Below are positions 9,100 through 58,206 of a stretch of DNA of 64,000 nt, in pieces. The notes beneath the pieces are model-generated. The model saw only the letters and a program-made list of their open reading frames with translations. It was not told the origin of the DNA and made no database searches. How positions within the stretch are numbered: position 1 is the stretch's first letter; each line of letters begins with the position of its first letter. The stretch is from Gammaproteobacteria bacterium (lineage in GTDB: Bacteria > Pseudomonadota > Gammaproteobacteria > UBA4575). The position numbers were made by a program, and so were the translations under genes. The stretch spans positions 9,772 to 73,771 of the forward strand of contig JABDMD010000005.1 of NCBI GenBank assembly GCA_013001685.1. The letters run 5' to 3'.

Positions 9100-9130
9100 T
9101 ATTTCCGCTTTTGGCCAATAGCAGTCATTA
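9100..9130. repeat. Palindromic repeat copy A (ttccgcttttggccaatagcagtcatt)
   Basis: Matches the family consensus GTCCGCTTTTGGCCAAAAGCGGAC and shares the 3' flank tcattNNtaagt with copy B. Confidence 0.7.
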
Positions 9131-9612: not shown

Positions 9613-9642
9613 CAATACATTTCATAATTCTTTATATGTATA

Positions 9643-9672
9643 TGTCCGCTTTGGTTCGTTAGCAAACATTAT
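9643..9672. repeat. Degenerate palindromic repeat copy (gtccgctttggttcgttagcaaaca)
   Basis: The left arm and centre match the family. The right arm is mutated (GG to AA). Confidence 0.45.
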
Positions 9673-9945
9673 ATTAAAGCAAGCAACATCTTCACGTATT
9701 ACATCACGCTGAGAAGCGTAAGGTGAATTTGGGGTAAGACGAACCGTGTATGAGTGCAGCGAGTCGGTGAGCCGCCAAATTCATTGAGCATTCTCAGAAA
9801 TAAGCGATGTTAAGCGCAATGCTTTTGGGTGCTTTTAGCGAAACCAAAGTACCTTGCTCTCTGAGAACAAGTGATTAGGAAAAGAATAGGAACAAAAAGA
9901 GAGAGCGGAAAAGGCAGAATATTACTTATGAAAATAACTAGGTGC

Positions 9946-11268
9946 CTACTGATCACCAAACACTGACTTCAATCGATCTAGATAACCAGAATTTTTATCG
10001 TCATCATCATCAAACACAGATGAATTTTCATTCATTGCAGACTCATCCAAAAAGTCATCATCATCAAACCCTACATGACTATCCAATGCTTCTTCTTCAT
10101 CAACCGTATCAGATAAGACTGGTGGTTGTTTACTTCCTTTCGCAGATTTTTTGCTTGGCTCTTCAGTTGGAAACACTAGCTGATCACTGGAATCACTAAC
10201 ACTCTTAACACCACCACCAAAGTTAATTTGCCACTCAAGATTGCCACGAGAATCAGCATTTCCTAAGGCATCATCGAGCGAAATTCTTTCACTCTTATAT
10301 AAGTCGTAAAGTGATTGGTCAAAGGTTTGCATGCCAGAGGCAGCACCTTTTTCCATAATAGGTTTTATCTCACTCACACTACCGCGTTTAATTAGTTCTG
10401 AAATATAAGGTGTGTTAATCAACACTTCTACTGCTGGAACACGTCCACCTTCAACATCTGGAATCAATCGTTGCGCTACAATACCACGTAAGTTCAATGA
10501 CAAATCCATTAAGATTTGAGACTTTCCTTCTGGTGGGAAAAAATTAACGATGCGATCTAATGCTTGGTTGGCATTCACCGCGTGCAAAGTGGTTAAACAT
10601 AAATGACCCGTATCGGCATAGGTAATTGCAGCTTCCATAGTTTGTTTATCACGCACCTCACCAATCATTATTAGATCAGGTGCTTCACGCATGGCTTCAC
10701 GCAACGCGTTTTCATATGAAAGTGTATCTAGTCCTACTTCACGCTGGCCTATAATAGATTTTTTATGGCTGAAAGCATATTCGATGGGATCTTCAATAGT
10801 AAGAATGTGACCAGTCTGCTCAACGTTACGATGCTCAATCATCGAAGCCAGTGAAGTTGATTTACCAGAACCGGTAGAACCCACCATTAGCACCAAACCA
10901 TTTTTTTGCAATACTAATTTTTTAAGTATTGGTGGTAAACCAAGATCTTCTAGTTCAGGAATGTCACCTTTAATGTAACGAATCACCATGGAGATTTCGC
11001 CACGCTGATAATAAGCATTTACACGGAAACGCCCTGCACCTGCGACTGAAATTCCAAGGTTCATCTCCTTAGTCATTTCAAATTCTCTGATCTGCTGATC
11101 ATCCATGATGCTGTAGGCAATTTTCTTTACCACGCCTGGCTCAAGAACATTCCTACTTACACGTCGCGTAACACCTTCAACTTTTGTGCACACTGGTGCA
11201 CCTGTTGTAAAAAACAGGTCAGAAGCATTTTGCTCCACCATCAGCTTTAGATAAGGATCTATATTCAT
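9946..11268 (-). CDS. PilT/PilU-family type IV pilus retraction ATPase, third paralogue, with an acidic C-terminal tail of about 90 aa
   Basis: Walker A GSTGSGKST, Asp box, Walker B and His box of the PilT family. The C-terminus is rich in D/E/S (DDDDFLDESAMNENSSVFDDDDD). Confidence 0.8.
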   Translation of the reverse strand: MNIDPYLKLMVEQNASDLFFTTGAPVCTKVEGVTRRVSRNVLEPGVVKKIAYSIMDDQQIREFEMTKEMNLGISVAGAGRFRVNAYYQRGEISMVIRYIKGDIPELEDLGLPPILKKLVLQKNGLVLMVGSTGSGKSTSLASMIEHRNVEQTGHILTIEDPIEYAFSHKKSIIGQREVGLDTLSYENALREAMREAPDLIMIGEVRDKQTMEAAITYADTGHLCLTTLHAVNANQALDRIVNFFPPEGKSQILMDLSLNLRGIVAQRLIPDVEGGRVPAVEVLINTPYISELIKRGSVSEIKPIMEKGAASGMQTFDQSLYDLYKSERISLDDALGNADSRGNLEWQINFGGGVKSVSDSSDQLVFPTEEPSKKSAKGSKQPPVLSDTVDEEEALDSHVGFDDDDFLDESAMNENSSVFDDDDDKNSGYLDRLKSVFGDQ

Positions 11269-11305
11269 GTAGTGTTATTCAGAATCTGGCTAATATTATA
11301 GCTAC

Positions 11306-12496
11306 TTAACCCAAATTAGCTCGTTTTACTGGTGCGATTAAACCTGCGTCATCGTCGGTTTCTTCTACCATCAAGCCTGCTGTTCCCTCAAGTAGGTCGT
11401 TATCCTTAGCATCCTTACTGTCTAGCTTCAGTCGTAAACGTAAATCATTCACGGAGTCAGCATTACGCAAGCCATCTTCCATGGTGATTAAGCCAGCCTC
11501 AATAAGGTGAAACAAGTGTTGATCAAAAGTCTGCATGCCTAGCTCGTTAGACTTTGCAATTAGTGCCTTCATTTCATGCACATGGCCTTTAAAGATTAGA
11601 TCTGCCATTAAGGGTGTATTCAGCAAAACTTCTACTGCTGGAACACGTCCTTCTTCGTCCTTAATTGGCAATAGTCGTTGAGAAATAACCGACTTTAAGT
11701 TCAACGACAAGTCCATCAATAATTGAGCACGTCGCTCATCGGGGAAAAAGTTAATGATTCGATCCAATGCTTGGTTAGTACTATTAGCGTGCAAGGTAGA
11801 TAAACATAAATGCCCAGTTTCTGCGAAGGCAATTGCATGTTCCATTGTTTTGCGATCACGAATCTCGCCTATCAGAATCACATCTGGCGCCTGACGTAAC
11901 GTATTTTTCAGTGCAATGTCATAATCTTCCGTATCTACACCTACTTCGCGTTGAGTAATGATGCAGTTCTTATGCTTATGTACGAATTCAATGGGGTCCT
12001 CAATAGTTACGATATGTCCAAAGCTATTTTCATTTCGATAACCGACCATGGCAGCAAGTGAAGTTGATTTACCACTGCCTGTACCACCAACGAAAATAAC
12101 CAAGCCGCGCTTGGTCATTGATATATCACGCAATACTGGAGGTAGTTTTAACGATTCAAACTTTGGAATTTCTGAGTTAATTACACGTAATACCATTCCG
12201 GGACTGCCACGTTGCGCAAATGCGTTAACACGAAATCGAGACACATTAGGCAAGCTGATTGCAAAGTTACATTCTTGTGTTTCTTCATACTCTCTAGACT
12301 GTTTGTCATTCATAATTGAACGCACTAACACTTGTACATGACTGGAGGTTAGAGGCTGATTAGTAACTGGCACCATCTTGCCATCAATTTTCATTGAAGG
12401 TGGTGCACCCACTGTTATAAATAAATCTGAGCCACCTTTTGTAAGTAGGTTGCGCAGCAGGTCATGCATGAAGCTTATGGCCTTATCTCTATCCAT
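11306..12496 (-). CDS. pilU: Type IV pilus ATPase PilU
   Basis: 396-aa PilT-family ATPase (GGTGSGKSTSLAAM...). Lies downstream of pilT, as in Pseudomonas. Confidence 0.85.
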   Translation of the reverse strand: MDRDKAISFMHDLLRNLLTKGGSDLFITVGAPPSMKIDGKMVPVTNQPLTSSHVQVLVRSIMNDKQSREYEETQECNFAISLPNVSRFRVNAFAQRGSPGMVLRVINSEIPKFESLKLPPVLRDISMTKRGLVIFVGGTGSGKSTSLAAMVGYRNENSFGHIVTIEDPIEFVHKHKNCIITQREVGVDTEDYDIALKNTLRQAPDVILIGEIRDRKTMEHAIAFAETGHLCLSTLHANSTNQALDRIINFFPDERRAQLLMDLSLNLKSVISQRLLPIKDEEGRVPAVEVLLNTPLMADLIFKGHVHEMKALIAKSNELGMQTFDQHLFHLIEAGLITMEDGLRNADSVNDLRLRLKLDSKDAKDNDLLEGTAGLMVEETDDDAGLIAPVKRANLG

Positions 12497-12548
12497 TGTT
12501 TATTCCTTTAACTACAATCTTTACGAAATTAATTTTAAAAATCTGCTC

Positions 12549-13583
12549 TTAGAAATCGGCTTTATTCTCTGCTTTACGTCGCGCTTCTTCACGAGCAATC
12601 AATCCCTTTTTGAGAATTTCTTGCAAGTTTTGATCCAAAGTTTGCATTCCCACACTGTTTCCTGTTTGTATTGCAGAATACATCTGTGCGACTTTATCTT
12701 CGTTAATTAAGTTACGAATCGCTGGCGTGCCAATTAAAATTTCGTGTGCAGCTACACGACCACCGCCGATCTTACGACATAATGTTTGCGAAATTACTGC
12801 ACGCAATGAGGCTGCTAACATGGAACGTACCATGTCTTTTTCAGCACCAGGGAATACATCGATAATACGGTCAATAGTTTTTGATGCCGAACTAGTATGT
12901 AAAGTACCTAACACTAAGTGGCCAGTCTCTGCAGCTGTAAGTGCGAGTCGAATCGTTTCTAAATCACGTAACTCGCCTACAAGAATCGTATCGGGATCTT
13001 CACGTAATGCTGAACGCAGCGCTTCATTAAAGCCTAAGGTATCGCGATGCACTTCGCGTTGGTTAACCAAGCTCTTTTTACTTTCGTGAACGAATTCGAT
13101 GGGATCTTCAATAGTTAGAATATGGCTGTATTCGTTATCGTTTTTATGATCCATCATCGCAGCCAACGTTGTAGATTTACCTGAACCAGTTGGTCCAGTA
13201 ACTAACACTAAGCCACGTGGGTAACTGGCTATCTCTGAAAATATTTTCGGACAATCTAGATCTTCTAGGGTAAGAATTTTGCTAGGAATCGTTCTGAATA
13301 CTGCACCTGCGCCACGGTTTTGTATAAACGCGTTTACACGAAAACGTGCCAGACCAGGAATTTCAAACGAAAAATCCGTTTCTAAATATTCTTCATAATC
13401 TTTACGCTGTTTATCGTTCATGATGTCATATACCATTTCATGAACTTGTCGATGTTCCATTGCTGGAACATTGATACGTCTAACATCACCATCGACACGA
13501 ATCATCGGCGGTACCCCTGCAGAGAGGTGTAAATCTGAAGCGCCATTTTTAACGCTGAATGCAAGTAACTGCGAAATGTCCAC
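12549..13583 (-). CDS. pilT: Twitching motility ATPase PilT
   Basis: 344 aa with the canonical PilT N-terminus MDISQLLAFSVKNGASDLHLSAG and ATPase motifs. Confidence 0.9.
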   Translation of the reverse strand: MDISQLLAFSVKNGASDLHLSAGVPPMIRVDGDVRRINVPAMEHRQVHEMVYDIMNDKQRKDYEEYLETDFSFEIPGLARFRVNAFIQNRGAGAVFRTIPSKILTLEDLDCPKIFSEIASYPRGLVLVTGPTGSGKSTTLAAMMDHKNDNEYSHILTIEDPIEFVHESKKSLVNQREVHRDTLGFNEALRSALREDPDTILVGELRDLETIRLALTAAETGHLVLGTLHTSSASKTIDRIIDVFPGAEKDMVRSMLAASLRAVISQTLCRKIGGGRVAAHEILIGTPAIRNLINEDKVAQMYSAIQTGNSVGMQTLDQNLQEILKKGLIAREEARRKAENKADF

Positions 13584-25822: not shown

Positions 25823-28177
25823 TTATTGTTTTGAAAGATACATCCAAGTGCTTAGAACTGAATCTGGGTTCAAAGACAAACTATCAATTTTTTGTTCAAT
25901 CAACCACTTTGCAAAATCAGGGTAGTCTGACGGGCCTTGCCCACAAATTCCAACGTATTTATTTGCTTGTTTACAAGCCTGTATCGCCATTCTTATCAGG
26001 CTCTTTACTGCATCATTTCTTTCATCAAACTTTTCTGCAATCAATTCTGAATCGCGATCTAAGCCAAGCGTCATTTGCGTTAGGTCATTAGAGCCGATAG
26101 AAAAGCCATCAAAGTATTGCAAAAATTGTTCTGCCAATAAGGCATTTGAAGGAACTTCACACATCATAATGACTTTTAGATCATTCTCGCCACGAACCAA
26201 TCCGTTTTTTCCCAAAAGTTCGGTAACTTGCTTGGCTTCATCAATAGTGCGAACGAAAGGAATCATGATTTGGATATTGGTGCAGCCCATTTCATTGCGT
26301 ACGCCATGCACTGCCTTGCATTCCATCTCAAAACAGGCCTGAAACATCTCGGACAAATATCGCGATGCACCGCGATAACCAATCATAGGATTTTCTTCTT
26401 CAGGCTCGTATAAATTCCCTCCCAATAAATTTGCATATTCATTTGATTTAAAATCGGACAGTCGCAGTATGACTGGTTTCCCCTCGAACGCAGTTGCGAG
26501 CGTGGCGATTCCCTCGGTTAACTTGCTTATATAGAAATTTGTTGAATTATCATAAGCAGAAATTTTTTTAGTAATTGTACTTTTTATTTCATTAGGCAAA
26601 GTATCAAAATCCAACAAAGCACGCGGATGGATACCCACCATATTGTTGATCACAAATTCCAGTCGTGCCAACCCAACACCTGCATTTGGTATTTGTGCAA
26701 AAGAAAACGCACGCTCAGGATTACCCACATTCAACATGATCTTGCATGGAATTTCGGGCATTTTTTCTAGTTGAATTTTGTCTACTTCAAAATTAAGTAA
26801 TCCAGAATACACATTGCCGGTATCCCCTTCGGCGCATGAAACCGTAACTGGCTGTGCAGTGCTAATCTTGTTGGTTGCATCACTACATCCTACTACAGCT
26901 GGCACACCCAATTCTCGTGCAATGATTGCAGCATGACAGGTGCGTCCTCCTCGGTTTGTAACGATAGCCGCTGCTCTTTTCATTACCGGTTCCCAATCGG
27001 GATCGGTCATATCCGTTACCAAGACCTCGCCTTCTTGAAGCTGATCAATTTCCTTCAAAGATTGAATAACTCGCGCATTACCTGCACCAATACGACTACC
27101 TATACTTCGCCCCGTTGTGAGCACAGATGACTTTTCACGCAAGGAATATTTTTCAATTATTTTTTGTGTTTGGCTTTGTACCGTTTCTGGTCTAGCCTGC
27201 ACAATATATAGCTTTCCATCTATACCATCTTTCGCCCACTCAATATCCATAGGACGTTTATAGTGTTGTTCAATTTTTAGCGCCATTTACGCTAAGGCTT
27301 CGACCTCTTCATTGTTAATACAAAATTTTATTTGCTCTTCAGGATCAACATTCAAAGTGTCGACACCACTTTGTTTGTCTCTGAAAACCATTTTTTCTAA
27401 TTTGCTGCCAAGTGTGCGACTAATAATGGCCGCTTTACCTCGTTTAATTGACGATTTTGAAACATAGAACTCATCCGGGTTAACTTGCCCCTGGACAATC
27501 GTTTCGCCTAATCCGTTACTTGCTGTTATCAGCACAACTTCTCTGCATCCGGATTCAGTGTCTAGTGTGAACATCACGCCACTGGATGCAAGGTCGCTGC
27601 GCACCCTTTGCTGCACCCCTGCTGAGAGTGAAACATGCGCATGCTCAAAATCCTTATGCACGCGATAAGCAATGGCACGGTCATTGTATAAAGAAGCAAA
27701 CACTTTCCTAACCGCACTTAACACTTCATCAATTCCACAAACATTAAGATAACTTTCTTGTTGTCCGGCAAATGAAGCCTCGGGTAAATCTTCCGCTGTC
27801 GCTGAAGAGCGCACAGCAACCGCTGCATTGGGGCATGTTGTGCCTTCCAGGTTTTTATATGAGGCTCGAATATCTTGTTCCAATACTTTAGGTAATTTAG
27901 CATTGAGCATTAAATTTCGAATTTCATCTCCACACTTAGACAATGCACTGATATTATCTACATCAAGATTGCTTAGACGCTTGGCAATTTCATCTTTAAG
28001 ACGATTCTCCTGGAGAAACATTTGAAACGCATAGGAAGTAGTAGCGAATCCACCTGGAACCGATATACCAACCGAGCTAAGATTCTGAATCATCTCACCA
28101 AGAGATGCGTTTTTACCACCAACATCAGGTAGATTGTTTGAGCTAAGTTTTGCTAAATTTATAACGCAATCATTCAT
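25823..28177 (-). pseudogene. ppsA: Phosphoenolpyruvate synthase PpsA interrupted by one in-frame TAA (N-terminal 296 aa + stop + C-terminal 487 aa)
   Basis: Both ORFs align collinearly to PpsA (E. coli ...EEVQELAKQAVQIEKHYGRPMDIEW versus here ...[24 protein letters not shown]). The stop at 27287-27289 sits exactly at the conserved Lys codon. Confidence 0.65.
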
Positions 28178-28192: not shown

Positions 28193-29026
28193 TTGGATAG
28201 CAAAAAAATACAAAATGTTTTTTTCATCTCAGATAGTACTGGAATTACTATTGAGTCATTAGGACATTCATTATTTACACAATTTCCAGATATTACCTTT
28301 GAAAAGAAAGTTTTCCCATTTGTCACCAAAAAAGAAAATGCAGAAAAGGCAATTTCACACATAAAAAAAGTCGCTACAAACTCTCAAAACACACCTATAG
28401 TCTTCACCAGCCTAGCAGATGAAGATCTCAAGAATTTGTTTGCTGCTAATGATATTTCCATTTTCGATATTTTTTCATCTTTTATACCCGAAATGGAATC
28501 ACATTTAAAAACTCAAGCTTCACACGCAATAGGAGAAACACATGGTGTGGGCAACACTTCTGACTACCTTCAGCGCATTGACGCATTAAATTTTGCATTA
28601 AGCCATGATGATGGCATGAAGCTAGACACTATAGAACATGCTGACATCATTTTAACCGGCGTTTCTCGAAGTGGAAAAACACCGACCTGTTTATATCTAG
28701 CCATGCATTACAATCTAAAAACCGCAAATTACCCGCTAACGGACTCTGATTTTGAAAACTCTTATTTACCAGAGACTCTAAGAGCCTCTCAAGACCAAAT
28801 ATTCGGGCTCACCATTTCACCTACTCAATTATGCAAAATTAGGACTGAAAGAAAACCAAATAGTAAGTATGCATCATTTGAACAATGCGAGTTTGAAATT
28901 AAGAAAGCTGAATCAATATATAAAAATTCAAAGCTTCCTTTTATTGATACCTCATCAGTCTCTATTGAGGAAATTGCTACCACTATAATTCAACGCTTGA
29001 ATTTAAAACCTCAAGGCAAATGGTAA
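28193..29026 (+). CDS. ppsR: PEP synthase regulatory protein (PSRP/PpsR, DUF299 kinase/pyrophosphorylase)
   Basis: 277 aa, divergent from ppsA as in E. coli ydiA. P-loop GVSRSGKT. Confidence 0.85.
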   Translation: MDSKKIQNVFFISDSTGITIESLGHSLFTQFPDITFEKKVFPFVTKKENAEKAISHIKKVATNSQNTPIVFTSLADEDLKNLFAANDISIFDIFSSFIPEMESHLKTQASHAIGETHGVGNTSDYLQRIDALNFALSHDDGMKLDTIEHADIILTGVSRSGKTPTCLYLAMHYNLKTANYPLTDSDFENSYLPETLRASQDQIFGLTISPTQLCKIRTERKPNSKYASFEQCEFEIKKAESIYKNSKLPFIDTSSVSIEEIATTIIQRLNLKPQGKW

Positions 29027-34352: not shown

Positions 34353-35252
34353 ATGAGTGTAACGATAACAGCAACCCGCAGCCTAGCAGCTGATCTTGTT
34401 GAAATCTGCAAGCCTCGCATAGCATTACTTGTTCTAGTAACCACATTCGCCGGGATGTGGCTAGCAGCCAGTACAACATTAGAATTTGATCTCATTCTGT
34501 TCACTCTATTAGGTACTGGCCTTGCTTCGGCTGCAAGTGGTGCATTCAACAATTATGTTGACCGTGAAGTAGATAAGCTCATGGCGCGCACGAGAATGCG
34601 CGCACTACCCTCTGCTCGACTACATCCTCAGCAAGCACTATGGCTTGGTGTGATGTTAAGTTTATGGTCATTCGCGATACTTTTTTATTTGGTTAATCCA
34701 TTAACTGCAATCCTTGTTCAGGCTACAACTTTTTCCTATGTAGTTATTTACACCATTTGGTTAAAACGCAGTTCTTCTTTATGCACTGAAATTGGCGGCA
34801 TAGCAGGCGCAATGCCGCCCGTTATTGGTTGGGCTGCTGTGACAAATGAAATTGGTTGGCCCGCACTAATGATGTTTTTAATTATGTTTATCTGGCAACC
34901 CCCGCATTTTTGGGCACTAGCTTTATTACGTAAAGACGAATATCGCCAAGCAAAGTTACCCATGTTACCCGTCACACATGGCGACAAAGCAACTAAAACC
35001 CGCATGTTGCTTTATACCGTCGCTTTAATACCAACTAGTTTAGCAATGTATTGGCTACAACTAGTAGGCCCCACTTATTTAGTTTTAGCTTCGATTCTTG
35101 GTATTACTTATTTAGTGTTAACTATAGATTTTGCACGCAAGCCGATCACGCAAAAAAGCTCAAAAAAACTATTCGGCTTTTCAATTTTATATTTACTAGG
35201 TTTGTTTACTTTGATTTTTATTGACTGTCAGTGTGGGACTGCTGTCTCATGA
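34353..35252 (+). CDS. cyoE: Heme O synthase (protoheme IX farnesyltransferase), copy 1
   Basis: UbiA-family motifs (NNYVDREVDKLMARTRMRALP). Confidence 0.9.
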   Translation: MSVTITATRSLAADLVEICKPRIALLVLVTTFAGMWLAASTTLEFDLILFTLLGTGLASAASGAFNNYVDREVDKLMARTRMRALPSARLHPQQALWLGVMLSLWSFAILFYLVNPLTAILVQATTFSYVVIYTIWLKRSSSLCTEIGGIAGAMPPVIGWAAVTNEIGWPALMMFLIMFIWQPPHFWALALLRKDEYRQAKLPMLPVTHGDKATKTRMLLYTVALIPTSLAMYWLQLVGPTYLVLASILGITYLVLTIDFARKPITQKSSKKLFGFSILYLLGLFTLIFIDCQCGTAVS

Positions 35253-41261: not shown

Positions 41262-42542
41262 ATGCCGAAGCTTTCTCGCAATGCATTCTTCGCGATTACT
41301 GTAATTGTTTTAGTTTCTATATTCGTATCGTGGATCTACCAACATAACAATCTCCCCGATTGGTCTGCAGATGAAATTAAAATCTTACAATCTTTATCAA
41401 TAGATAAACTACCACCTCTTCCTAAAGACCACAGCAATGCATTCGCAGACAATCTAAGGGCAGCAGAATTTGGTAGACAGTTATTCTTTGATGAGCGTTT
41501 CAGTCACAATTCTAAAATTTCATGTGCGACTTGCCACGTACCCGAACTCTACTTCACAGATGGTTTAGCAACAGCCGCAGGTGCGCAAGCAGGCATTCGC
41601 AACTCCCCTACCTTAGTAGGAGTAGCCTACAGTCCATGGCAATTCTGGAATGGCCGCAGTGATAGTCAATGGTCACAAGCTTTAGCCCCACTGGAGAATA
41701 CTTTAGAACATGCAGGTTCTAGGACTCAGTTCGCACACATTATTTTTACAGATAAAAATTACCGCCAACGCTACGAAGAATTATTTGGTTCCATGCCAAA
41801 TTTATCGAACAAGAAACGCTTTCCAAAAGCCGCAGCTCCAGTAGATAACCAGGAGCTTAATAATGCCTGGCAGGCTATGCAAACCAAAGACCAAAAAGCT
41901 GTAAATGTGGTCTTTGTAAACATGGCGAAATCGATTGCTGCTTATCAAAGATTACTACAACCAGCTTCATCAAGGTTTGATAATTATGTGGATGGGATAA
42001 TCAACAATGATGCAGAAAAATTAAAATCACTTAGCAAATATGAAATTGCAGGTTTAAAATTATTTATTGGTAAAGCGCAATGTATTAATTGTCATAACGG
42101 ACCGTTATTAACTAATAATGAATTTCATAATACCGGTATCATATCTGCGGCTCGTCAACTACCTAGTTTAGGTCGTGCAACTGGACTACGTATAGTTTTA
42201 ACAGACCCATTCAATTGCCAAGGAGAATTTAGTGATGCAGATTCAAAGCAATGTAAAGAATTACGCTTTGTAAAAACGGGTGACGAATTAATTGCTGCAC
42301 ATAAAGTGCCTACATTGAGAAATGTGGCAGATACCGCGCCATATATGCATGCAGGACAATTAACTACCCTAGAAGAGGTTATTGAACATTACAATCTAGC
42401 ACCATTAGCAATGATTGGACACAATGAGATCAAACCTTTGCAGCTAAGCGGAAAAGAAAAAAAACAACTAACAAAATTCTTACATAGTTTATCTGGGCCA
42501 CTTGCAATAGATCCAAAGTGGCTAATAAATCCACATATATAG
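41262..42542 (+). CDS. Di-heme cytochrome c peroxidase (CCP/MauG family)
   Basis: Two CxxCH motifs (CATCHV, CINCHN). Confidence 0.85.
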   Translation: MPKLSRNAFFAITVIVLVSIFVSWIYQHNNLPDWSADEIKILQSLSIDKLPPLPKDHSNAFADNLRAAEFGRQLFFDERFSHNSKISCATCHVPELYFTDGLATAAGAQAGIRNSPTLVGVAYSPWQFWNGRSDSQWSQALAPLENTLEHAGSRTQFAHIIFTDKNYRQRYEELFGSMPNLSNKKRFPKAAAPVDNQELNNAWQAMQTKDQKAVNVVFVNMAKSIAAYQRLLQPASSRFDNYVDGIINNDAEKLKSLSKYEIAGLKLFIGKAQCINCHNGPLLTNNEFHNTGIISAARQLPSLGRATGLRIVLTDPFNCQGEFSDADSKQCKELRFVKTGDELIAAHKVPTLRNVADTAPYMHAGQLTTLEEVIEHYNLAPLAMIGHNEIKPLQLSGKEKKQLTKFLHSLSGPLAIDPKWLINPHI

Positions 42543-42673: not shown

Positions 42674-43576
42674 TTGATTTTGAATGCAACCATTTCAGCG
42701 GCTCGCACCCAAGCAAGTGATTTATTTGAGATAAGCAAACCACGCATTGCTTTATTAGTCTTGCTTACTACTTTTACCGGCATGTGGTTAGCTGGTGGTG
42801 GTTATGTGCCATTAGATTTAGTTATTTATACACTCATTGGCACAGGTTTAGCCTCTGCCTCAAGTGGCGCGTTAAACAATTACGTAGATCGTGAGGTTGA
42901 TAAACTCATGGCACGTACACGTAACCGTGCGTTACCAACGTCAAGGTTACATCCACAACAAGCTCTATGGCTTGGTGGCCTATTAAGTATTTCTTCATTC
43001 GCTATTTTATTTTATTTAGTAAACCCATTAACCGCATACTTAGCATTAGGCACTACTTTTTTCTATGTAGTGATTTATACCATCTGGTTAAAACGCACTT
43101 CACCACTGTGCACAGAAATTGGTGGCGTCGCGGGAGCATTACCACCGGTAATCGGTTGGGCGGCTGTTACCAACGATATAAGTTGGCAAGCCATGGTCAT
43201 GTTTTTAATTATGTTTATTTGGCAACCACCACACTTTTGGGCGTTGGCACTACTACGTGCTGATGAGTATCGGCGCGCCAATTTACCCATGCTACCGGTT
43301 GTTAGTGGCATGGAAGTTACCAAATTCAGAATGCTGCTATATACCATCGTGCTAATTCCAGTTAGCACTACCATGTATTGGTTTAAGCTAGCAGGCCCTA
43401 TTTACCTGATTGCAGCACTAGTATTAGGTATTATCTATTTAGTTATCACCATAGATTTTGCACGCAAGCCAATCACTCACCAAAGTACAAAACGTTTATT
43501 TGGTTATTCGATTATTTATCTATGCGGCTTATTTATTTTTATCTTCGCTGACTGTCAATGCAGTGGTGCTTTATAG
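42674..43576 (+). CDS. cyoE: Heme O synthase, copy 2 (paralogue of 34353-35252)
   Basis: Same UbiA motifs (NNYVDREVDKLMARTRNRALP). About two-thirds identical to copy 1. Confidence 0.9.
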   Translation: MILNATISAARTQASDLFEISKPRIALLVLLTTFTGMWLAGGGYVPLDLVIYTLIGTGLASASSGALNNYVDREVDKLMARTRNRALPTSRLHPQQALWLGGLLSISSFAILFYLVNPLTAYLALGTTFFYVVIYTIWLKRTSPLCTEIGGVAGALPPVIGWAAVTNDISWQAMVMFLIMFIWQPPHFWALALLRADEYRRANLPMLPVVSGMEVTKFRMLLYTIVLIPVSTTMYWFKLAGPIYLIAALVLGIIYLVITIDFARKPITHQSTKRLFGYSIIYLCGLFIFIFADCQCSGAL

Positions 43577-50334: not shown

Positions 50335-51231
50335 TTATACAGTATTGCTCTCTTGACTAAGGCGTGTAATTGATTCAATTACATCATTTGCATTACTAAT
50401 ACGATCTTTTGGCCGCTTAGCTAACATCCTCTCAATTAATGGCTGTATGTGCCTATATTCATATGGAAGCTGAGGTATCGGATCTCGCACATGTGCGAAT
50501 AATACAGAAACAACATCTTTTCTTGTATAAGGCGCTGTACCACTATCAAAAGGAGGTTTACCTGTAAGCATTTCAAAAAATACGATACCGAGAGAATAAA
50601 TATCAGAGCTAGGTCCAATAGGACTTGAACGGATGAGGTCTGGACTCATATAACGTGGTGTACCTTGACTAGACTTACTTGTAATTTCGGTGCGATGTTC
50701 AAGTTCATCTGCAATTCCAAAATCAGAAAGTACTGCAGAATTTTCATCTCTAAATAAAATATTTTCGGGCTTGATGTCGCGGTGAACAAATCCATGTTCA
50801 TGTGAGAAAGCCAGTGCTGATGATATCTGTTTCATAACATCATAAACCCAATCTAATTCCAGTTTGTTTTTTAGATGTCTGCGCAGGTTTCCCCAAGGCA
50901 TATATTCCATTGAAATATAGTGGTAGTCATCTACCACCCCTACATCATGAATGGGAACAATATTAGGATGCGAAAGGTTAGCATTAATACGACCTTCTTG
51001 TATAAAATGGCTTATACGTTCCTCGTCATCTAATATTGACGCATGCGTAATCTTTAACGCGATTTGGCGATATAACGATTTTTGAATTGCAACGTATACT
51101 TTCGCGGTTGCACCACTCCCGCAAAAGCCAACAACTTCATAGCCAGGTATATCTAAGCTAAATGAATGTTCTGAAATTGCCTGAGCCGCTTCTACATTTA
51201 GATCAAACGTTAAATCTTGCACGTGTGTCAC
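50335..51231 (-). CDS. Hanks-type serine/threonine protein kinase (cytoplasmic, kinase domain only)
   Basis: ATP-binding loop GSGATAKVY...ALK, catalytic loop HRDIKPENILF, DFG, and a P+1 loop GTPRYMSPD. Confidence 0.8.
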   Translation of the reverse strand: MTHVQDLTFDLNVEAAQAISEHSFSLDIPGYEVVGFCGSGATAKVYVAIQKSLYRQIALKITHASILDDEERISHFIQEGRINANLSHPNIVPIHDVGVVDDYHYISMEYMPWGNLRRHLKNKLELDWVYDVMKQISSALAFSHEHGFVHRDIKPENILFRDENSAVLSDFGIADELEHRTEITSKSSQGTPRYMSPDLIRSSPIGPSSDIYSLGIVFFEMLTGKPPFDSGTAPYTRKDVVSVLFAHVRDPIPQLPYEYRHIQPLIERMLAKRPKDRISNANDVIESITRLSQESNTV

Positions 51232-51327
51232 TTGATTATCGTCAATTTATGGTCTCAGCTTAACAATATACATGCATCATTTGTAGTGCTATTAGTATAA
51301 AAACCAGACATTAAATTGACTTAATCA

Positions 51328-54207
51328 TTACTGTACAAATGCGGCAACACCAAGTGAATTCATACATTCGAGCAATTCGTCGTCGTCATAAGGTTTAGTG
51401 ATATATGCAGATATTCCGATGCGTTCTGCTTCTTTCACATGTTTATCTGACGATTTTGAAGTAATCATTATAATTGGTATAGATGCCGTTTCATTGTTAG
51501 ACCGTAGATGATTAGAAAGCTCCAAACCATTCATTCTTGGCATTTCTAAATCAGTTAAAACAACACTTGGTGTCTGAAGTTGAATCTGGTTTATAGCCTC
51601 TACTCCGTCTTTTGCTGTAAACACAGCAAAACCAAGATCCTTCATAAATTGCTCGAGAGATTTACGTGTACTTATTGAGTCTTCCACAATTAGAGCAAGT
51701 GGAAGATCCTCTTGTAATTTTTCTAATTTTTCACTTTCAATGTATGTCCTATCAGACATATTTGAATTTTTTAATAACTCAACAATATCAATTACCGTTG
51801 TAACACTGCCATCACCCAGTATTGTTGAACCAAGTAGTCCCAATATTTTTGGAATAAACTTACTTAATGGCTTAGTAACAATATCTCTAGTATCAAATAT
51901 TTCATCTATCGTAACCGCAATTTTTTTATTTAGATCATCATTAATTAGCAATGTTACTTTTTGTTGCTCAAACGAATTATCCGCTGTTTTCGCTAGTAAA
52001 AATTGCAAATCAAATACTGGATATCTACGCTGCATATACTCAAAATACATCTTTCCAGAATCTGAAATAAAATCACCAGCACCAGCATACAAGATTTCAT
52101 CAACCCCTCTGTTTGATAACGCAACAGTAATATCCGCGCATCGCACTATGAGTGCATGCACTGAATTAATAGTAGTGGGTATTATTACTTCAACTCTAAC
52201 ACCATTATCTTTATTGGTATCTATAGCTACAGACCCTTTCATTTCAAGTACTTTTGTATGAACAGCAGCCAATCCAACACCTCGCCCAGACAATTGAGAT
52301 ACTTTGTCCTTAGTTGAAAAACCATGCTCAAGAATAATTTGAATTGCACGGTCATTAGTAAGTTTTTCATCTGCGTGTAAATATTCTTTTGCGATTGCTT
52401 TTGATTTAATAAGATTAAAATCAAGGCCACCACCATCGTCCTGACAAACAACACGAATAAGACCTCCTTCTTTTTTGAAACTGAGTTGTACTCTACCTTC
52501 AGAACTCTTTTTAAACTTTAATCTTTGCTCAGGCGTTTCTATCCCATGATCAACCGCATTCCGAATTATGTGCATTAATGGATCAACGAGCTGATGAATA
52601 AATTCACTATCAATAAGAGTATCTTCACCTGAAATTTCTAAACTAACGCGCTTGCCTGATTGCTTGCACGCCTGCCTTAGTGCACGTCTTAATCGCGGCA
52701 CAATACTCTGCACTGGTATCATACGAATTCGTGAAACTGCAGTTTGATTTTCATGCAAATTTCGTAATTGACTTAAGGACAACCTTTCAAGCTTGAATAG
52801 TGATTCTTCAATTTCACTTGAATATTCAACCGAATCATCTGAGCTTTCCATTAATTGATTCGTTAACGTATGCAATTCACTAAACTGCTCCATTTCTAAA
52901 GAATCAAATTCACTATCTTTAGAAATACTTTGCATAGAAAATGAAAAACCACGTACTCCAATCAAGCTTTCCAATTCTTGAGAAAGCATTTTAATTTTTT
53001 TGTTACTTGAACTTAAGTGCTGAATAGATGATTGAAGATTAAAAACTAACTCTTTAATTTGCTCATTAGATATGATGTTTTCACCTGCGCGCTTTAATAA
53101 GTCATCTGCCAAACTAACTGGAATTCGCAGAAATGGGTCTGCTGTAGTTTCTGCATGCCTTATATTAAGATCTTTTTTCTGGCTAGACAGAACTTGCTTT
53201 GATATATCATGTGAGCTTGGAGTGATTTTATTTTCTTTACTCTCGAGTTGTCTAATTACGCCAGAGCTGTCTATCTTATTAGCCCAATCTAAAATTTCCT
53301 GGAGTATTAATTCAGATTGCTCAGGATATGGCCCAAGATCTTCTAAATATTCTGACATTTCCTCTAAACAATCTGCAGCATTTTGAATTGCACTATGGAG
53401 TGATTCTGATGGTTTCGTCTTAGCTTTTAATAATGCCGCAAATATGTCCTCAAGGTGGTGCGTCAGACTTACAATCCCTTGAATCCCTACAGTATTTCCA
53501 GCACCTTTAAGCGTGTGTGTAGTACGGCCAGCAATCTCAAGCTGCTTAAGAAAATCATCACTTTGTAAACTTTGTACTGCTCTTGATAATTCTTCTGTCT
53601 GCCTAGGTAAATCAAGCATTAAGCTATTAAATAAATCCGAATTAATTTCTTCAGATATTTTAAGACTTACAAGCTCTGGAGTAGCTTTACTTATATGCTC
53701 TGGTGTTTCGCCATGATCAATTTCAATTTTAGAAATTAGAAATAATGACTCTAGTTTATCTAGTTCATGCTTATCTAATCTGACAGGCCAATAATTCTGA
53801 TCAAGATAGTCTAAAATGGATTGTATACACTCAGAATTGTATGGTGCCAATAAATAAGTATGAATAACATCAGGCCAATACAGTATTTTTGACCGTAATG
53901 AAATAAAATCTTTGAGTTGATTTTCCTGAATATGTTGAAGATTTTTTCGTATACTTAAACAAAAATAATGCAGCCCTCGCAATCCAATCATTTCTGCTGC
54001 AGACCCAATCCTACTGGTATGAAAAATCTGTAAGTCTATAATATCTTCTAATTGTTTATCATCCATCCCTCGCTTATCAAGCTCAGAGAACAACTCTGCT
54101 TGCAGTTCGAGTAAATCAGAAACTTCGCTTTTAATTAAATCAATTAACTCTTGTTGCTCGCTCGTGAGCTCACTCAATGACGGATTCATATCAGTATTTA
54201 TTTGCAT
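51328..54207 (-). CDS. ChpA-like hybrid CheA histidine kinase (Hpt - dimerisation/HATPase - CheW-like - C-terminal receiver)
   Basis: Hpt motif HTLKGAGNTVG, HATPase (DDGGGLD, GRGVGL), a CheW-like domain and a C-terminal REC (LIVEDSISTRK...DLEMPRMNG...KP). Confidence 0.85.
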   Translation of the reverse strand: MQINTDMNPSLSELTSEQQELIDLIKSEVSDLLELQAELFSELDKRGMDDKQLEDIIDLQIFHTSRIGSAAEMIGLRGLHYFCLSIRKNLQHIQENQLKDFISLRSKILYWPDVIHTYLLAPYNSECIQSILDYLDQNYWPVRLDKHELDKLESLFLISKIEIDHGETPEHISKATPELVSLKISEEINSDLFNSLMLDLPRQTEELSRAVQSLQSDDFLKQLEIAGRTTHTLKGAGNTVGIQGIVSLTHHLEDIFAALLKAKTKPSESLHSAIQNAADCLEEMSEYLEDLGPYPEQSELILQEILDWANKIDSSGVIRQLESKENKITPSSHDISKQVLSSQKKDLNIRHAETTADPFLRIPVSLADDLLKRAGENIISNEQIKELVFNLQSSIQHLSSSNKKIKMLSQELESLIGVRGFSFSMQSISKDSEFDSLEMEQFSELHTLTNQLMESSDDSVEYSSEIEESLFKLERLSLSQLRNLHENQTAVSRIRMIPVQSIVPRLRRALRQACKQSGKRVSLEISGEDTLIDSEFIHQLVDPLMHIIRNAVDHGIETPEQRLKFKKSSEGRVQLSFKKEGGLIRVVCQDDGGGLDFNLIKSKAIAKEYLHADEKLTNDRAIQIILEHGFSTKDKVSQLSGRGVGLAAVHTKVLEMKGSVAIDTNKDNGVRVEVIIPTTINSVHALIVRCADITVALSNRGVDEILYAGAGDFISDSGKMYFEYMQRRYPVFDLQFLLAKTADNSFEQQKVTLLINDDLNKKIAVTIDEIFDTRDIVTKPLSKFIPKILGLLGSTILGDGSVTTVIDIVELLKNSNMSDRTYIESEKLEKLQEDLPLALIVEDSISTRKSLEQFMKDLGFAVFTAKDGVEAINQIQLQTPSVVLTDLEMPRMNGLELSNHLRSNNETASIPIIMITSKSSDKHVKEAERIGISAYITKPYDDDELLECMNSLGVAAFVQ

Positions 54208-54254
54208 TAAATAGGCTACATATTCGCATTGAAATATATATCCATATGAATAAT

Positions 54255-56552
54255 CTATGCGCTCTCTAGCTCCGCGAGTTTGTCACGAATTACAGTGCTT
54301 TTACTGCTAATTTTAGAAGTAGTAAGACCCTTAACACCTTTGTTCTCATCCAATTGTGATTTAGTTTGTTTTTGCTGCTCCTGCTGAATCGCAGGGAGCT
54401 TAAAGATACCAACAGTTGTCAGTAACATATTTGAGTACCTAACTAAGTTGTTGGCATTTGTCATTTGCTGATGCAAATGCTCATCTGTTTTTCGTGTACT
54501 CTCTACAATCTCGTTAGATTTTTCTACTAACTGCAAATTTTCTTGTGCTTGTGCTTTTGAACTCTCAGTAATTTGAATTACAGCCTTAACAAGATCCTCA
54601 GTGGACTCTTTTGTTTGTTTCATGGCGTCACCGGCTTGTTCAGCGAGCGTAGTGCCTTCTGCCACTTGACTAATGACAGTATTCATTGCAGTTGCTGTGT
54701 CTTTTGTTTCGATACGAATATTACTAACTAATGAGTCTATTTCTGTTGTTGCTTCTCGCGCACTCTCAGCTAAGCGCTGAACTTCATCAGCAACTACTGC
54801 AAATCCACGACCAGCCTCACCTGCTGAAGCAGCATGCATACTGGCGTTCAACGCCAATATATGCGTACGCTCTGCAATACTATTAATTAAATTAACCACA
54901 CCCGTGATCTCTTGTGACCGCTCACCCAATCTTTTAATACGCTTCTCGGTTTCTTTAATAGTATCGCGAATGCTATTAATTCCTTCTACAGAGCGGTTAA
55001 CAGTATCCAATGCTGTTTGTGTGTTATTCAGGGCATTATCTGCGCGTTTATTAGCATCTATCGCATCCCATGAAATTTTACTCATTGCTTCGGAAGATTC
55101 TTTAAGCTCTTGCATAATATTTTCTGCTTGATGCCGTTCTTTTTCCGCAACAGCCATTACAAACTTAGATTGACGCTGTACGCGATTAGATTCAACCACT
55201 ACCCGTACTGAAATTTCTTTTACATCACTTAAAGCAGTAGCTGTTTCTTTAGTTAGCAGATTTAATGAGTCCCCTAATGCACCTGTTACATCCTCAAAAA
55301 TTGGAGCTTTAATCGTAAAGTCTTTTTTACTTAACTGAGCTACAGAATTCAGTAAAGATATTACTGAATCATTCAACTGCTCATTATTTTTTTCTGTAAC
55401 TGAAAGTTGTGTTACTTTTTCATCTAGCAGTTTATCGAATGCGCTCGATAACTCGCCCAACTCATCTTTTCGATTTAATTCTGTTCTTACTTCCAAGTTA
55501 CCTTCGTTTACATCATGAATTGCGTTTACAAGTGAATTAATAGGTTTTGTTATGGTATAACCAAACAAATACAACAAAAATGAAATCAGACCTGCTATCG
55601 CTATTAAGGATAAAAGCACAACCCAGGTAACTGCGTTAGTTGTTTTTTCTTGTGTAGATTGATTTTGCAAAATGCTCAATACTGAAGACTGCCCCATCTC
55701 ATCAAACATCGGGCCAAGCATGAAATCATACAATTCCGTGTATTCATTTGCATTGCGCTTATTATCAACAATATCATCGATTGTGCTAATATAATTAGCC
55801 ATATAGTTTTCTATGATTGGCTTATCATTATCAGATATGAAATCAGAGCCACTTAATATTGCATCAAATTTTTGATATTGATGTTTTAAATCTTCAAATG
55901 ATTCAGTCAAATCTATTGATTGCAATATATGTTTTTCATGGGCTCTAATTTTTGCAAGTACTGTAAATAAATTTGAGTTAGTCGCATTCCCTATTCCACT
56001 TTCAATATGTCCAAGAAGTAAGTTAGCTTTTTGACGCAACCCTTCAGCATCAGTAAAACCTACCAATTTATTAAACTTCACAATATCTGAAAAGGATGCT
56101 TTGTAATCATTTACTACAGCAGAGGCCTGAGCTACCAATTGTGATGAGTACTCAATGGGTAAAGCGACATCACCAATAACTATTTCGTCAGCTGCAATTG
56201 AATCAATCTCAACACTCAAAGCGCGAAGTTGCTCCATATTTTCTTCTAGTAACTGCACATGCTTTGAATGCTCATCAAGAGGAGCATTGTTGTAGGTCTG
56301 GCCAGTAGATGCAGAAATACTTAATAGAAAATCTTTCTCATACCGCCTTACTTTGAAGTAGTTTTTTTGTGCATCACTTACTAGTTGTCCGTATTTGATA
56401 AATAAATTAGATCTCTCAGTTGCCTCACGCTCATTTTTAATTACAAACCAATACGTCAAGGCAATTGCAATAAAACCTAAAGTAACGGCTATAAATAGAA
56501 TAGCAAGTTTATTTGTAATCTTAATGTCTAATAACTTATTCAAATAAGCCAT
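54255..56552 (-). CDS. Methyl-accepting chemotaxis protein with a large periplasmic sensor domain
   Basis: Two TM segments flank a periplasmic domain of about 280 aa. HAMP region. Highly conserved MCP signalling domain (ILALNASMHAASAGEAGRGFAVVADEVQRLAE). Confidence 0.85.
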   Translation of the reverse strand: MAYLNKLLDIKITNKLAILFIAVTLGFIAIALTYWFVIKNEREATERSNLFIKYGQLVSDAQKNYFKVRRYEKDFLLSISASTGQTYNNAPLDEHSKHVQLLEENMEQLRALSVEIDSIAADEIVIGDVALPIEYSSQLVAQASAVVNDYKASFSDIVKFNKLVGFTDAEGLRQKANLLLGHIESGIGNATNSNLFTVLAKIRAHEKHILQSIDLTESFEDLKHQYQKFDAILSGSDFISDNDKPIIENYMANYISTIDDIVDNKRNANEYTELYDFMLGPMFDEMGQSSVLSILQNQSTQEKTTNAVTWVVLLSLIAIAGLISFLLYLFGYTITKPINSLVNAIHDVNEGNLEVRTELNRKDELGELSSAFDKLLDEKVTQLSVTEKNNEQLNDSVISLLNSVAQLSKKDFTIKAPIFEDVTGALGDSLNLLTKETATALSDVKEISVRVVVESNRVQRQSKFVMAVAEKERHQAENIMQELKESSEAMSKISWDAIDANKRADNALNNTQTALDTVNRSVEGINSIRDTIKETEKRIKRLGERSQEITGVVNLINSIAERTHILALNASMHAASAGEAGRGFAVVADEVQRLAESAREATTEIDSLVSNIRIETKDTATAMNTVISQVAEGTTLAEQAGDAMKQTKESTEDLVKAVIQITESSKAQAQENLQLVEKSNEIVESTRKTDEHLHQQMTNANNLVRYSNMLLTTVGIFKLPAIQQEQQKQTKSQLDENKGVKGLTTSKISSKSTVIRDKLAELESA

Positions 56553-56587
56553 ATTTTTTTCCTTATTAAATTAGTTCAGCTGTTTAA

Positions 56588-57172
56588 CTAATTTGTAAAT
56601 GATTCAATAAAAAAAGGGAAATCAATGCACACCCATATTTTTCCGCCTTTCTTATATGCATGAGTAACAAAAGGTTGTACTATTTTTGGTAGCTTGGAGA
56701 AATTTTTTAAACGCTCTTTTTTCTTAAAATTAATAGGTGAAGGTAACTTAGTAAGTTGTATTCCTATAGCATTTTCATCTTTATCTAAAACTAGCGTTTT
56801 ATATTTACCTGCTTCAATTACGCTTTTTTCACCACTAATTATTTGCTCAAAATCAATCACAGGCACAATATCGCCACGGTGGTTACAGGCCCCAAGTAAC
56901 CAATTTGGTGAAAGTGGAATAGGATAAATGAGGTTGTCTTCAAGGATTTCGGAAGATAGCGATGCAGATAACAGCATATTTAAATTTCCAATAATAAATC
57001 CAAAATAACGTTCATCCGTAGAACTTTTATTTGTATCTGGAGTAAACTGATATTCTGCTTCGAGCTTCTTGATTAATTCTGCATGCTTTTCTAGCCAGCC
57101 AGTACGGGCACTTTTACTGTCAACTTCAGATGCAATCGACAAAACTGACAGGTCATCAGACTCTTTCATCAT
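56588..57172 (-). CDS. CheW-like coupling protein
   Basis: CheW domain with an N-terminal extension. Overlaps the upstream cheY-like gene by 4 bp. Confidence 0.75.
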   Translation of the reverse strand: MMKESDDLSVLSIASEVDSKSARTGWLEKHAELIKKLEAEYQFTPDTNKSSTDERYFGFIIGNLNMLLSASLSSEILEDNLIYPIPLSPNWLLGACNHRGDIVPVIDFEQIISGEKSVIEAGKYKTLVLDKDENAIGIQLTKLPSPINFKKKERLKNFSKLPKIVQPFVTHAYKKGGKIWVCIDFPFFIESFTN

Positions 57173-57531
57173 ATATATTTGTTTATTTCTGCAACAATTT
57201 GATCTGATGTGAAAGGTTTAGCAATTAATGCCTTACCACCTTGTAGCTCTGCCCAAACATAATCTGCTTTTTGATTTTTCGTTGTTACAAAAATAATAGG
57301 AATATTTTTTGTTTTTTTATCTGCAATAATTTCGCGACACGCCTGATAACCATCTTTTTTATCCATAATTATATCCATAAAAATTAAATCTGGACGCATA
57401 CTGTTAGCTTTTTCTATAGCCTCCTCGCCAGAAATAGCTGTTATTGCCTGATAACCTGCATCTAAAACAATCGTTTTTAGCTTTTCTAGATCTGGTTTAG
57501 AATCATCAACAATTAGAATTTTATTGTTCAT
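57169..57531 (-). CDS. CheY-like response regulator (PilG/PilH class)
   Basis: ILIVDDSKPD...DLIFMDIIMDKKDGYQ...VTTKNQKADYVWAELQGGKALIAKP, the same class as the pilH homologue at 1079-1444. Confidence 0.85.
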   Translation of the reverse strand: MNNKILIVDDSKPDLEKLKTIVLDAGYQAITAISGEEAIEKANSMRPDLIFMDIIMDKKDGYQACREIIADKKTKNIPIIFVTTKNQKADYVWAELQGGKALIAKPFTSDQIVAEINKYI

Positions 57532-58206
57532 GGCATTTACAAACCTGAGTAAAAAATTTTAAACATATCGAGAATATCAAGTTACTCATTGACCTTGTCA
57601 TAATGACTAATTTTTATGTATAACGATCTTCCTTGGTCGCATATTTACTAAGATAATTTACGGTTACATTAAATTATGTTCCGCAATGTCTAATTTATAA
57701 TTGGTCGAACAATTTCTTTCGCTTATAACCTATCAAGCAAAAACTGTTCAAATTACGCATTTTTTTATTTTGTATGAGTTATGGGATACGCGCAGATTAG
57801 TACATACAGAGGAGACTTTGACGGTATTCACATTTTTTGTCAATAATAGTGCGGTTAATTCCAGCGGAATAACAAAATTTACATCCAGCATTTAAGACAA
57901 AGTTTGAATATCTAAAATAAGTATCTGCACCCAACAAATTACACTTATAGAAATTGCTAATAGACTTGTTTTAAATTTTTGATTTACATGCAAACCACAG
58001 GGACAACTAAACAGTACATTACAATGAAAAGTTAATTTATTGTCTAAGATATATATTTAACTGTATACAAATAAGGGCACATAAGGATGATCTTGAAGCT
58101 AATACATTCCTGAATCTTGCTGGCTATGTTTCATTCCATTCTAAATAGAATAAAACTTGGATTACGAACGCTCCAAGTTACCCTCAATCAGTTTATTTTA
58201 AATGAC

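Follow-up and report, generated by a model that had tools for sequence, protein, structure and literature searches.

A Hanks-type kinase gene inherited with a ChpA-like chemosensory operon that lacks CheR and CheB

The DNA analysed here (the window) is a stretch of 64,000 nucleotides from contig JABDMD010000005.1, which belongs to an uncultured marine gammaproteobacterium. Its minus strand carries, from 57531 to 50335, five co-directional open reading frames encoding a CheY, a CheW, a chemoreceptor of the MCP type, a CheA with a receiver (REC) domain at its C terminus and a Hanks-type Ser/Thr kinase; the four chemosensory proteins are hereafter referred to as CheY2, CheW2, MCP2 and CheA2. The link of the kinase to the chemosensory operon looks real and their evolutionary coupling is well supported, the five genes forming a self-contained module for signalling that is passed on as one unit. 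The best explanation of the findings as a whole, to which we give a probability of about one half, is that the kinase was recruited as the output of the pathway and replaces a response regulator that was lost.

The kinase gene is inherited together with the operon

An alignment of the N-terminal half of CheA, which is specific to this family, was used to scan species-representative genomes and yielded a set of 80 loci. The common layout in this family consists of an upstream regulator of ~260-300 residues followed by CheY, CheW, MCP and CheA-REC. In kinase-type loci, the kinase gene directly follows cheA in all seven cases with resolved context (the window, L001, L004, L005, L006, L084 and L085), even though the flanking genes are unrelated between these loci, and four further kinase/CheA orthologue pairs lie on contigs of matching size. 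Nearly all the other loci with readable context have the regulator gene beside cheY, and a stand-alone kinase was found in none of these. Consistently, there is no locus with both contexts readable at which the stand-alone kinase and the upstream regulator occur together.

The kinase-bearing loci group as a single clade in the CheA tree (bootstrap 1.0); this clade is sister to a regulator-bearing clade and nested among other regulator-bearing ones; the loss of the regulator and the gain of the kinase map to the same branch. The adjacency and orientation of the kinase gene and cheA are kept at CheA identities down to 46%, with the flanks turned over. The correlation between pairwise kinase and CheA distances was r = 0.97 (6 of 5040 permutations in an exact Mantel test); any two vertically inherited genes of the same genomes would also show such a correlation. 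As a control, generic-kinase loci from metagenomes were inspected, and none of the 80 among the loci listed had CheA, MCP or CheW neighbours. An earlier note, made from the letters of this DNA, had coupled the kinase to the operon and named a lack of co-occurrence as one finding that would speak against it; instead, co-occurrence proved to be strict in the context-resolved loci. Two metagenome-assembled genomes (MAGs) hold both operon types on different contigs (L005 and L008 in JANQOB01; L004 and L010 in JBOEHC01), and the kinase-type operon is therefore a diverged paralogue.

Kinases of a different architecture, REC-Pkinase fusions of 432-478 residues, are encoded ~80-1,040 bp after cheA in more distant members of the family, L055, L057, L065, L074, L075, L077 and L080; L075 comes from a cultured strain, Methylohalomonas lacus HMT 1. 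Their receivers have the canonical D/T/K residues in L065, L075 and L080; in L055, L057 and L077, the acceptor position is occupied by Glu. The catalytic domains of the fusions are 34-38% identical to the window kinase, below the 40-46% of generic kinases, and therefore represent a separate recruitment; the same values rule out that the window kinase is a truncated REC-kinase. By analogy, the REC-Pkinases encoded after cheA show that a pathway of this type can feed a Ser/Thr kinase. More tentatively than for the recruitment in the window, we suggest that a Hanks kinase may have become the dedicated output of a chemoreceptor array, turning His-Asp signals of CheA into Ser/Thr phosphorylation, at least twice in this CheR/CheB-less ChpA-like family, as a stand-alone protein in place of an ancestral PilG-like regulator and as REC fusions.

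A third kinase architecture, a Pkinase protein of 447-465 residues encoded just upstream of the operon or of the regulator gene, was seen in L061, L067 and L070. The protein of L061, the only one of these loci to be domain-annotated, had a sub-threshold cNMP-binding match (25.9 bits versus a cut-off of 27.5).

Organization of the operon

The operon has the following features, and every Pfam match of its five proteins exceeds the curated cut-off.

57169-57531, minus strand: cheY2, single-domain PilH-like response regulator, 120 aa (Response_reg 80 bits)
56588-57172, minus strand: cheW2, PilI-like coupling protein, 194 aa (Pfam CheW 49.8 bits, residues 57-186)
54255-56552, minus strand: mcp2, chemoreceptor with two transmembrane segments, 765 aa (HAMP 42 bits, MCPsignal 109 bits)
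51328-54207, minus strand: cheA2, ChpA-like CheA-REC hybrid, 959 aa (Hpt 33, HATPase_c 45, CheW 37 and Response_reg 93.5 bits)
50335-51231, minus strand: Hanks kinase gene, stand-alone Ser/Thr kinase, 298 aa (Pkinase 187.6 bits; cut-off 31.7)
51232-51327, minus strand: spacer between cheA2 and the kinase gene, 96 bp
57532-58206, minus strand: upstream non-coding region, 675 bp; presumed promoter region and, in related operons, site of the regulator gene

These genes and their domains agree with the description in the earlier note, which also placed the kinase gene 96 bp beyond cheA on the same strand, exactly the gap of 51232-51327, and correctly ascribed a large sensor to the 765-residue MCP, in which two hydrophobic segments bracket ~263 residues. 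The cheY2 and cheW2 genes overlap by 4 bp and the remaining intergenic gaps are 35, 47 and 96 bp. In the NCBI records, the five proteins are consecutive entries, NNC66594-NNC66598, with generic names. The operon is surrounded by housekeeping genes, for HIT and ferritin upstream and for BipA and formaldehyde-activating enzyme downstream.

The spacer between cheA2 and the kinase gene is A+T-rich with a weak ribosome-binding site, and no terminator-like hairpin was found on its minus strand; the corresponding spacers of the orthologous loci measure 33-143 bp. A promoter scan returned 11 promoter-like sites, fewer than in shuffled sequences (36.8), and a weak one is located at 57601-57573, within the 675-bp upstream region. 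In tblastn searches with the regulator proteins of six relatives, the upstream regulator was absent from 57532-58206, and only REC-domain matches elsewhere in the window were returned. Kinase-type operons have an unusual length of gene-free DNA, 0.6-1.7 kb, upstream of cheY (L001 4948-6668; window 57532-58206; L084 3209-3821).

Neither CheR nor the CheB methylesterase was found across the window, where phmmer searches with E. coli CheR and CheB gave REC-domain matches only; in this respect the earlier note was right about the operon. Likewise, neither is encoded within +/-10 kb in any of the 80 related loci. Because none of the 80 loci carries CheR or CheB, the absence of methylation adaptation is a trait of the whole ChpA-like family. 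The arrangement without adaptation enzymes had also been thought undescribed, a view overturned both by the lack of these enzymes in all 80 relatives and by published cyanobacterial systems of the type IV pilus (Tfp) class that have been reported without CheR and CheB (10.1101/2021.06.11.447907).

The CheA family across genomes

The 80 loci are mostly from Gammaproteobacteria, including Competibacteraceae, Ectothiorhodospiraceae, Methylohalomonas lacus and Steroidobacteraceae; the labels of a few name other lineages, some Burkholderiales among them. The upstream regulator of these operons is composed of an N-domain of ~150 residues and a REC domain. The N-domain had no Pfam match even at E <= 1, PATAN/DUF4388 included, and is conserved family-wide with 23-59% identity (L002 5846-6346 and its equivalents in ~45 loci). 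By eye it looked like a pseudo-receiver, but hhalign against REC gave a probability of 1.2%, which leaves this idea a lead only.

Clustering of the neighbourhoods of the 80 loci showed no type IV pilus genes linked to the operon family at any of them. Genes that recurred near the operons were two further CheW genes and those for periplasmic binding proteins, for a PAS-HisKA_3 kinase together with a NarL-type regulator, for transporters and for a sulfotransferase, and the clustering gave no clue to the output of the family. The two extra cheW genes follow cheA in 44-46 loci, including those of Competibacteraceae. Competibacteraceae loci (L020, L023-L027, L042 and others) have one to three Peripla_BP_6 genes between cheW and the gene for a shorter MCP (~597 aa), which suggests that this branch senses ligands through binding proteins.

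The Hanks-type kinase

The kinase domain covers residues 31-282 (nucleotides 50386-51141) and is preceded by ~30 residues. The protein has no transmembrane or hydrophobic segment, no accessory domain and no REC match; it is a bare cytoplasmic catalytic domain. Its motifs (G-loop GSGATA, K60, HRDIKPEN at 150-157, DFG at 170 and SPD at 196) are invariant or nearly so in 19 orthologues, and on this evidence the kinase is predicted to be intact. Its best relatives in the PDB are StkP, PknB and PknA. The orthologue group is sharply bounded, its members having 287-306 residues and 57-99% identity; the next proteins are generic kinases with 40-46%. A metagenome scan with the alignment of the kinase orthologues returned no orthologue among the loci listed, and the patterns DIKPENIL and SDIYSLG proved to be generic.

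CheA2 and its pseudo-Hpt domain

Homologues of CheA2 align with it end to end at 37-98% identity, and some members of its cluster are named ChpA by the Joint Genome Institute (JGI). The domain order is pseudo-Hpt, Hpt, long dimerisation helices, kinase, CheW and REC; no P2 domain was matched in Pfam.

53713-54174, minus strand: pseudo-Hpt, CheA2 residues 12-165; helical bundle without conserved His
53263-53640, minus strand: Hpt (P1), residues 190-315; H231 in an HTLKG motif (Pfam Hpt 33 bits)
51364-51693, minus strand: C-terminal receiver, residues 839-948 (Response_reg 93.5 bits); acidic pocket, D, T and K present

The N-terminal region of CheA2, which the earlier note took to be long and novel, is a family-typical pseudo-Hpt: the region is common to more than 100 homologues, has a His-less Hpt fold and is repeated in giant ChpA-like proteins. 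Its AlphaFold2 model has high confidence (predicted local distance difference test, pLDDT, ~85-94). Alignment by hhalign with the protein's own Hpt gave a probability of 75% (E 2.4e-5) and revealed a 4-residue deletion in the pseudo-Hpt that takes out the HTLK phospho-acceptor motif. Family alignment A1 has no invariant His in the pseudo-Hpt, and H231 of the Hpt is invariant in it. The latter domain, residues 190-315, matched CheA P1 structures in Foldseek with a TM-score (target) of ~0.8 and looks functional.

The pseudo-Hpt was present and aligned end to end in 120 of 120 homologues among the matches listed, and the representative proteins in which an exhaustive search found it number 160. 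Five to nine copies are often present in ChpA-like kinases of 2,300-2,600 residues with a single canonical Hpt, and the Pfam Hpt model fails to recognise the repeat. P0331-P0339 are giant ChpA-like kinases of 2,250-2,580 residues in which 7-9 tandem pseudo-Hpt copies precede one Pfam-detectable Hpt.

CheY2, CheW2 and the chemoreceptor

CheY2 is most similar to the PilH-like protein of the window (39% identity, 102 bits), followed by PilG (34%) and E. coli CheY (25%); one member of its cluster is labelled PilH by JGI. The residues for phospho-acceptance, DD9-10, D53, T83 and K105, are all present. CheW2 has an N-terminal extension of ~56 residues. Its sole BLAST match among the references was the window PilI, with no match to E. 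coli CheW.

MCP2 has hydrophobic, presumably transmembrane, segments at about residues 12-40 and 304-335, as judged from hydropathy, and the following domains.

55644-56432, minus strand: periplasmic sensor, MCP2 residues 41-303; all-helical, ~263 aa
HAMP domain, minus strand, residues 330-377 (Pfam)
Signalling domain, minus strand, residues 529-681 (Pfam MCPsignal); hairpin tip EAGRGF at residue 579

The methylation-site consensus was absent from the cytoplasmic part of MCP2, whereas the same pattern recovered four sites in the Tar control. Compared with 36H Tar, MCP2 has insertions of 7, 14 and 7 residues, all heptad multiples. The sensor had no Pfam match, including to Pfam PilJ. Its AlphaFold2 model is all-helical with moderate confidence (pLDDT 70), and its Foldseek matches were weak (E 0.04-0.06): the HBM domain of McpS (probability 1.0, TM-score 0.47-0.50), PilJ (8wdf; probability 0.85, TM-score 0.29) and also TorS. 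A word-index protein search with the sensor returned four fragments, yet the fetched loci hold full-length homologues of MCP2 with sensors 44-78% identical, and the yield of this search is no measure of the spread of the sensor. P0242, a protein of 323 residues encoded on a 2.16-Mb contig, consists only of the two transmembrane segments and a sensor of the MCP2 type (43% identity over 86% of the sensor query); it has no HAMP and no signalling domain, and may be a truncated or stand-alone sensor.

The canonical pilus-control locus in the same window

The 5′ end of the window encodes a PilG-like REC protein (1889-1464), a PilH-like REC protein (1504-1079) and a CheW (1058-501), beyond which the gene for a membrane protein, represented by its first ~70 codons, runs off the window. 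Of the pilG-pilH-pilI-pilJ cluster that the earlier note placed here, the PilG-like, PilH-like and CheW genes are thus in evidence, and pilJ is seen as its N-terminus only; the remainder of pilJ and any pilK, chpA and chpB lie beyond the window start. The gshB gene (2083-3036) adjoins the genes for the PilG- and PilH-like proteins and is followed by pyrR/pyrB-like genes, and three PilT/PilU-type ATPases are encoded nearby, at 9946-13583. The gene order of window positions 1-13583 resembles that of P. aeruginosa PA0395-PA0411.

Since a canonical pil locus already lies at the 5′ end, the five-gene operon is an additional system; its reading as a second chemosensory operon of the ChpA/PilH-like kind, and a complete one, was borne out. 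The claim that it repeats the order pilG-pilH-pilI-pilJ needs amending. The order CheY-CheW-MCP-CheA is retained, but there is one CheY only and the order corresponds to pilH-pilI-pilJ-chpA.

Proposed role of the kinase and alternative explanations

If the kinase is the recruited output of the pathway, signalling might proceed as follows. Ligand binding by MCP2 would modulate the autophosphorylation of CheA2 at H231, and the phosphate would move to CheY2, to CheA2's own REC domain, or to both. The phosphorylated receiver, or CheA2 directly (for example via the pseudo-Hpt), would then control the kinase, which would carry the output by Ser/Thr phosphorylation of its targets, in the role of the lost regulator. 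Any adaptation would be methylation-independent, and CheY2 and the CheA2 REC domain may be phosphate sinks.

Several observations weigh against recruitment of the kinase as an output. The sample of kinase-type loci is small, the seven context-resolved ones all coming from MAGs, and the correlation of the kinase and CheA distances would also result from vertical inheritance. Contact of the kinase with any Che protein is hypothetical, and the window kinase has neither a REC nor any other docking domain. The analogy to the REC-fused kinases would be one of convergence only (34-38% versus 40-46% identity). No clade-specific Ser/Thr sites or insertions were found in CheY, CheW, MCP or CheA; the columns diagnostic of the kinase clade numbered 0, 0, 7 and 8, respectively, and none was like a phospho-site or a docking insert. 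No gene for a PP2C phosphatase or an FHA partner was found near the kinase-type operons. Finally, the promoter and terminator scans were neutral, speaking neither for nor against co-transcription of cheA2 and the kinase gene.

Alternatively, the kinase could be a modulator or a feedback element that phosphorylates MCP, CheW, CheA or CheY2 on Ser/Thr, resetting their sensitivity, and so stands in for adaptation by methylation. The lack of CheR and CheB, the lack of a methylation motif in MCP2 and the strict synteny of the kinase gene with the operon are all consistent with this idea, and other bacteria have Hanks kinases that phosphorylate proteins of two-component systems. However, the sister and outgroup systems also have no CheR/CheB and no methylation, yet they are kinase-free. 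Missing adaptation alone therefore called for no kinase, and the missing enzymes do not explain its presence. Moreover, the kinase was gained as a response regulator was lost, a coincidence that speaks for the output side, and the four Che proteins have no clade-specific Ser/Thr positions. We consider a modulating role unlikely.

A poorer prospect is that the kinase is a passenger, which was caught beside cheA in the ancestor of the clade, has been kept by operon inertia and serves an unrelated pathway. Such an origin would suit a kinase without docking or REC domain whose nearest relatives outside the orthologue group are ordinary kinases that lack a che context, and the weak ribosome-binding site and the 96-bp spacer would permit separate regulation. 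It is hard to reconcile with an adjacency and orientation that survive to 46% CheA identity despite the turnover of the flanks, or with catalytic residues that are clearly constrained. In addition, REC-Pkinases (after cheA) and Pkinase-cNMP proteins (upstream) joined the same CheA family independently.

Least probable is that the operon is an ordinary extra Pil-Chp paralogue serving type IV pili, with PilK and ChpB acting in trans and nothing special about the kinase: although CheY2 and CheW2 are most like the window PilH and PilI, JGI uses the names PilH and ChpA for cluster members, and the canonical locus runs off the window to where pilK and chpB could lie, MCP2 is without any methylation consensus, CheR and CheB are missing within +/-10 kb in every relative, the 80 loci show no linked type IV pilus gene, and the co-inheritance of the kinase would be left unexplained.

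Comparison with known systems

The operon shares with the Pil-Chp system of P. aeruginosa (PilG, PilH, PilI, PilJ, PilK, ChpA, ChpB and ChpC) the order CheY-CheW-MCP-CheA and a hybrid CheA that has Hpt-type domains, ends in a REC domain and lacks P2. Unlike Pil-Chp, it has a single PilH-like CheY with no PilG equivalent, lacks CheR (PilK) and CheB (ChpB), has an appended Hanks kinase and shows no genomic link to pilus genes; CheA2 contains one real Hpt and one pseudo-Hpt, whereas ChpA is reported with eight Hpt-type domains. CheAs with multiple Hpt domains and a REC domain are overwhelmingly of the alternative cellular functions (ACF) or Tfp class (PMC10782961). For membership of the present operon in the Tfp class, the JGI names ChpA/PilH and the heptad-multiple insertions in the MCP are hints only, and sequence searches of the PDB gave no PilH/ChpA class signal. 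Unlike ACF systems of the Wsp type, the operon and its flanks have no CheR, CheB or REC-GGDEF output.

The cyanobacterial Tax, Pix and Hmp systems (PatA-type response regulator, CheY, CheW, MCP and CheA-REC) are likewise reported to lack CheR and CheB, and they resemble the relatives of the operon in the order of their five genes, where a regulator of two domains is placed upstream of CheY, and in the two response regulators of the ancestral layout. They differ in having a PATAN-REC regulator, whereas the upstream regulator is absent from the window and its N-domain in the relatives has no PATAN match. In addition, MCP2 has a periplasmic helical sensor, not a cyanobacteriochrome, and the host is a gammaproteobacterium. 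Our literature search found no report of a cyanobacterial system with an in-operon Hanks kinase.

The loci with REC-Pkinases, such as that of M. lacus HMT 1, resemble the operon in that a Hanks kinase is encoded just downstream of CheA-REC in the same orientation, but those kinases bear an N-terminal receiver and coexist with the upstream regulator. In the known cases of cross-talk of the Stk1/PknB type, the kinases are membrane proteins that have sensor domains, target regulators of the transcription-factor kind and are encoded at other places in the genome. Such cross-talk and the operon have in common that His-Asp and Ser/Thr phosphorylation belong to one circuit; the window kinase differs as a bare catalytic domain encoded inside a chemoreceptor operon. 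Cross-talk between Hanks kinases and two-component systems is reviewed in PMC12189002.

As to the lost regulator, DrdR of Xanthomonas campestris is a tandem-receiver regulator of 280 residues with a non-canonical N-domain and a canonical C-terminal REC domain, and it binds PilB and PilT (PMC13507683). It is similar in size and layout to the upstream regulator, a likeness that is a lead only, drawn from comparison by description; unlike that regulator, DrdR is an orphan that is not encoded in a che operon. By this analogy, the binding of PilB and PilT hints at what the ancestral output may have been.

Other observations in the window

An in-frame TAA at 27287-27289, with an ATG immediately after it, splits the ppsA gene (phosphoenolpyruvate synthase; 25823-28177, minus strand) and interrupts its PPDK_N domain at profile positions 274/276. 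The gene could be a pseudogene, the stop could be an error of sequencing, or the enzyme could be genuinely made in two parts. Next to ppsA is a ppsR-like regulator gene (28193-29026). Elsewhere, two paralogous genes of the UbiA family (heme O synthase-like; 34353-35252 and 42674-43576, plus strand) flank a haem-copper oxidase cluster, and a MauG/cytochrome c peroxidase gene is located at 41262-42542.

Implications

Chemosensory pathways are known to act via proteins of the CheY type, cyclic-di-GMP enzymes, transcription factors or modules for partner switching. Our literature search found no description of a chemosensory operon with a conserved Hanks kinase, which is no proof of absence. The analysis defines two hitherto uncharacterised domains that are specific to the family, namely the pseudo-Hpt without His that is repeated in ChpA-like kinases and the N-domain of the upstream regulator. 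The idea that the kinase is an output is directly testable, since a cultured member of the family, M. lacus HMT 1, has the REC-kinase version. If the idea is true, the His-Asp and Ser/Thr systems, the two main routes of phosphorylation in bacteria, would be linked at a chemoreceptor array, and the output of such a pathway would be exchangeable, with the regulator taken out and the kinase brought in while the sensory core is left untouched.

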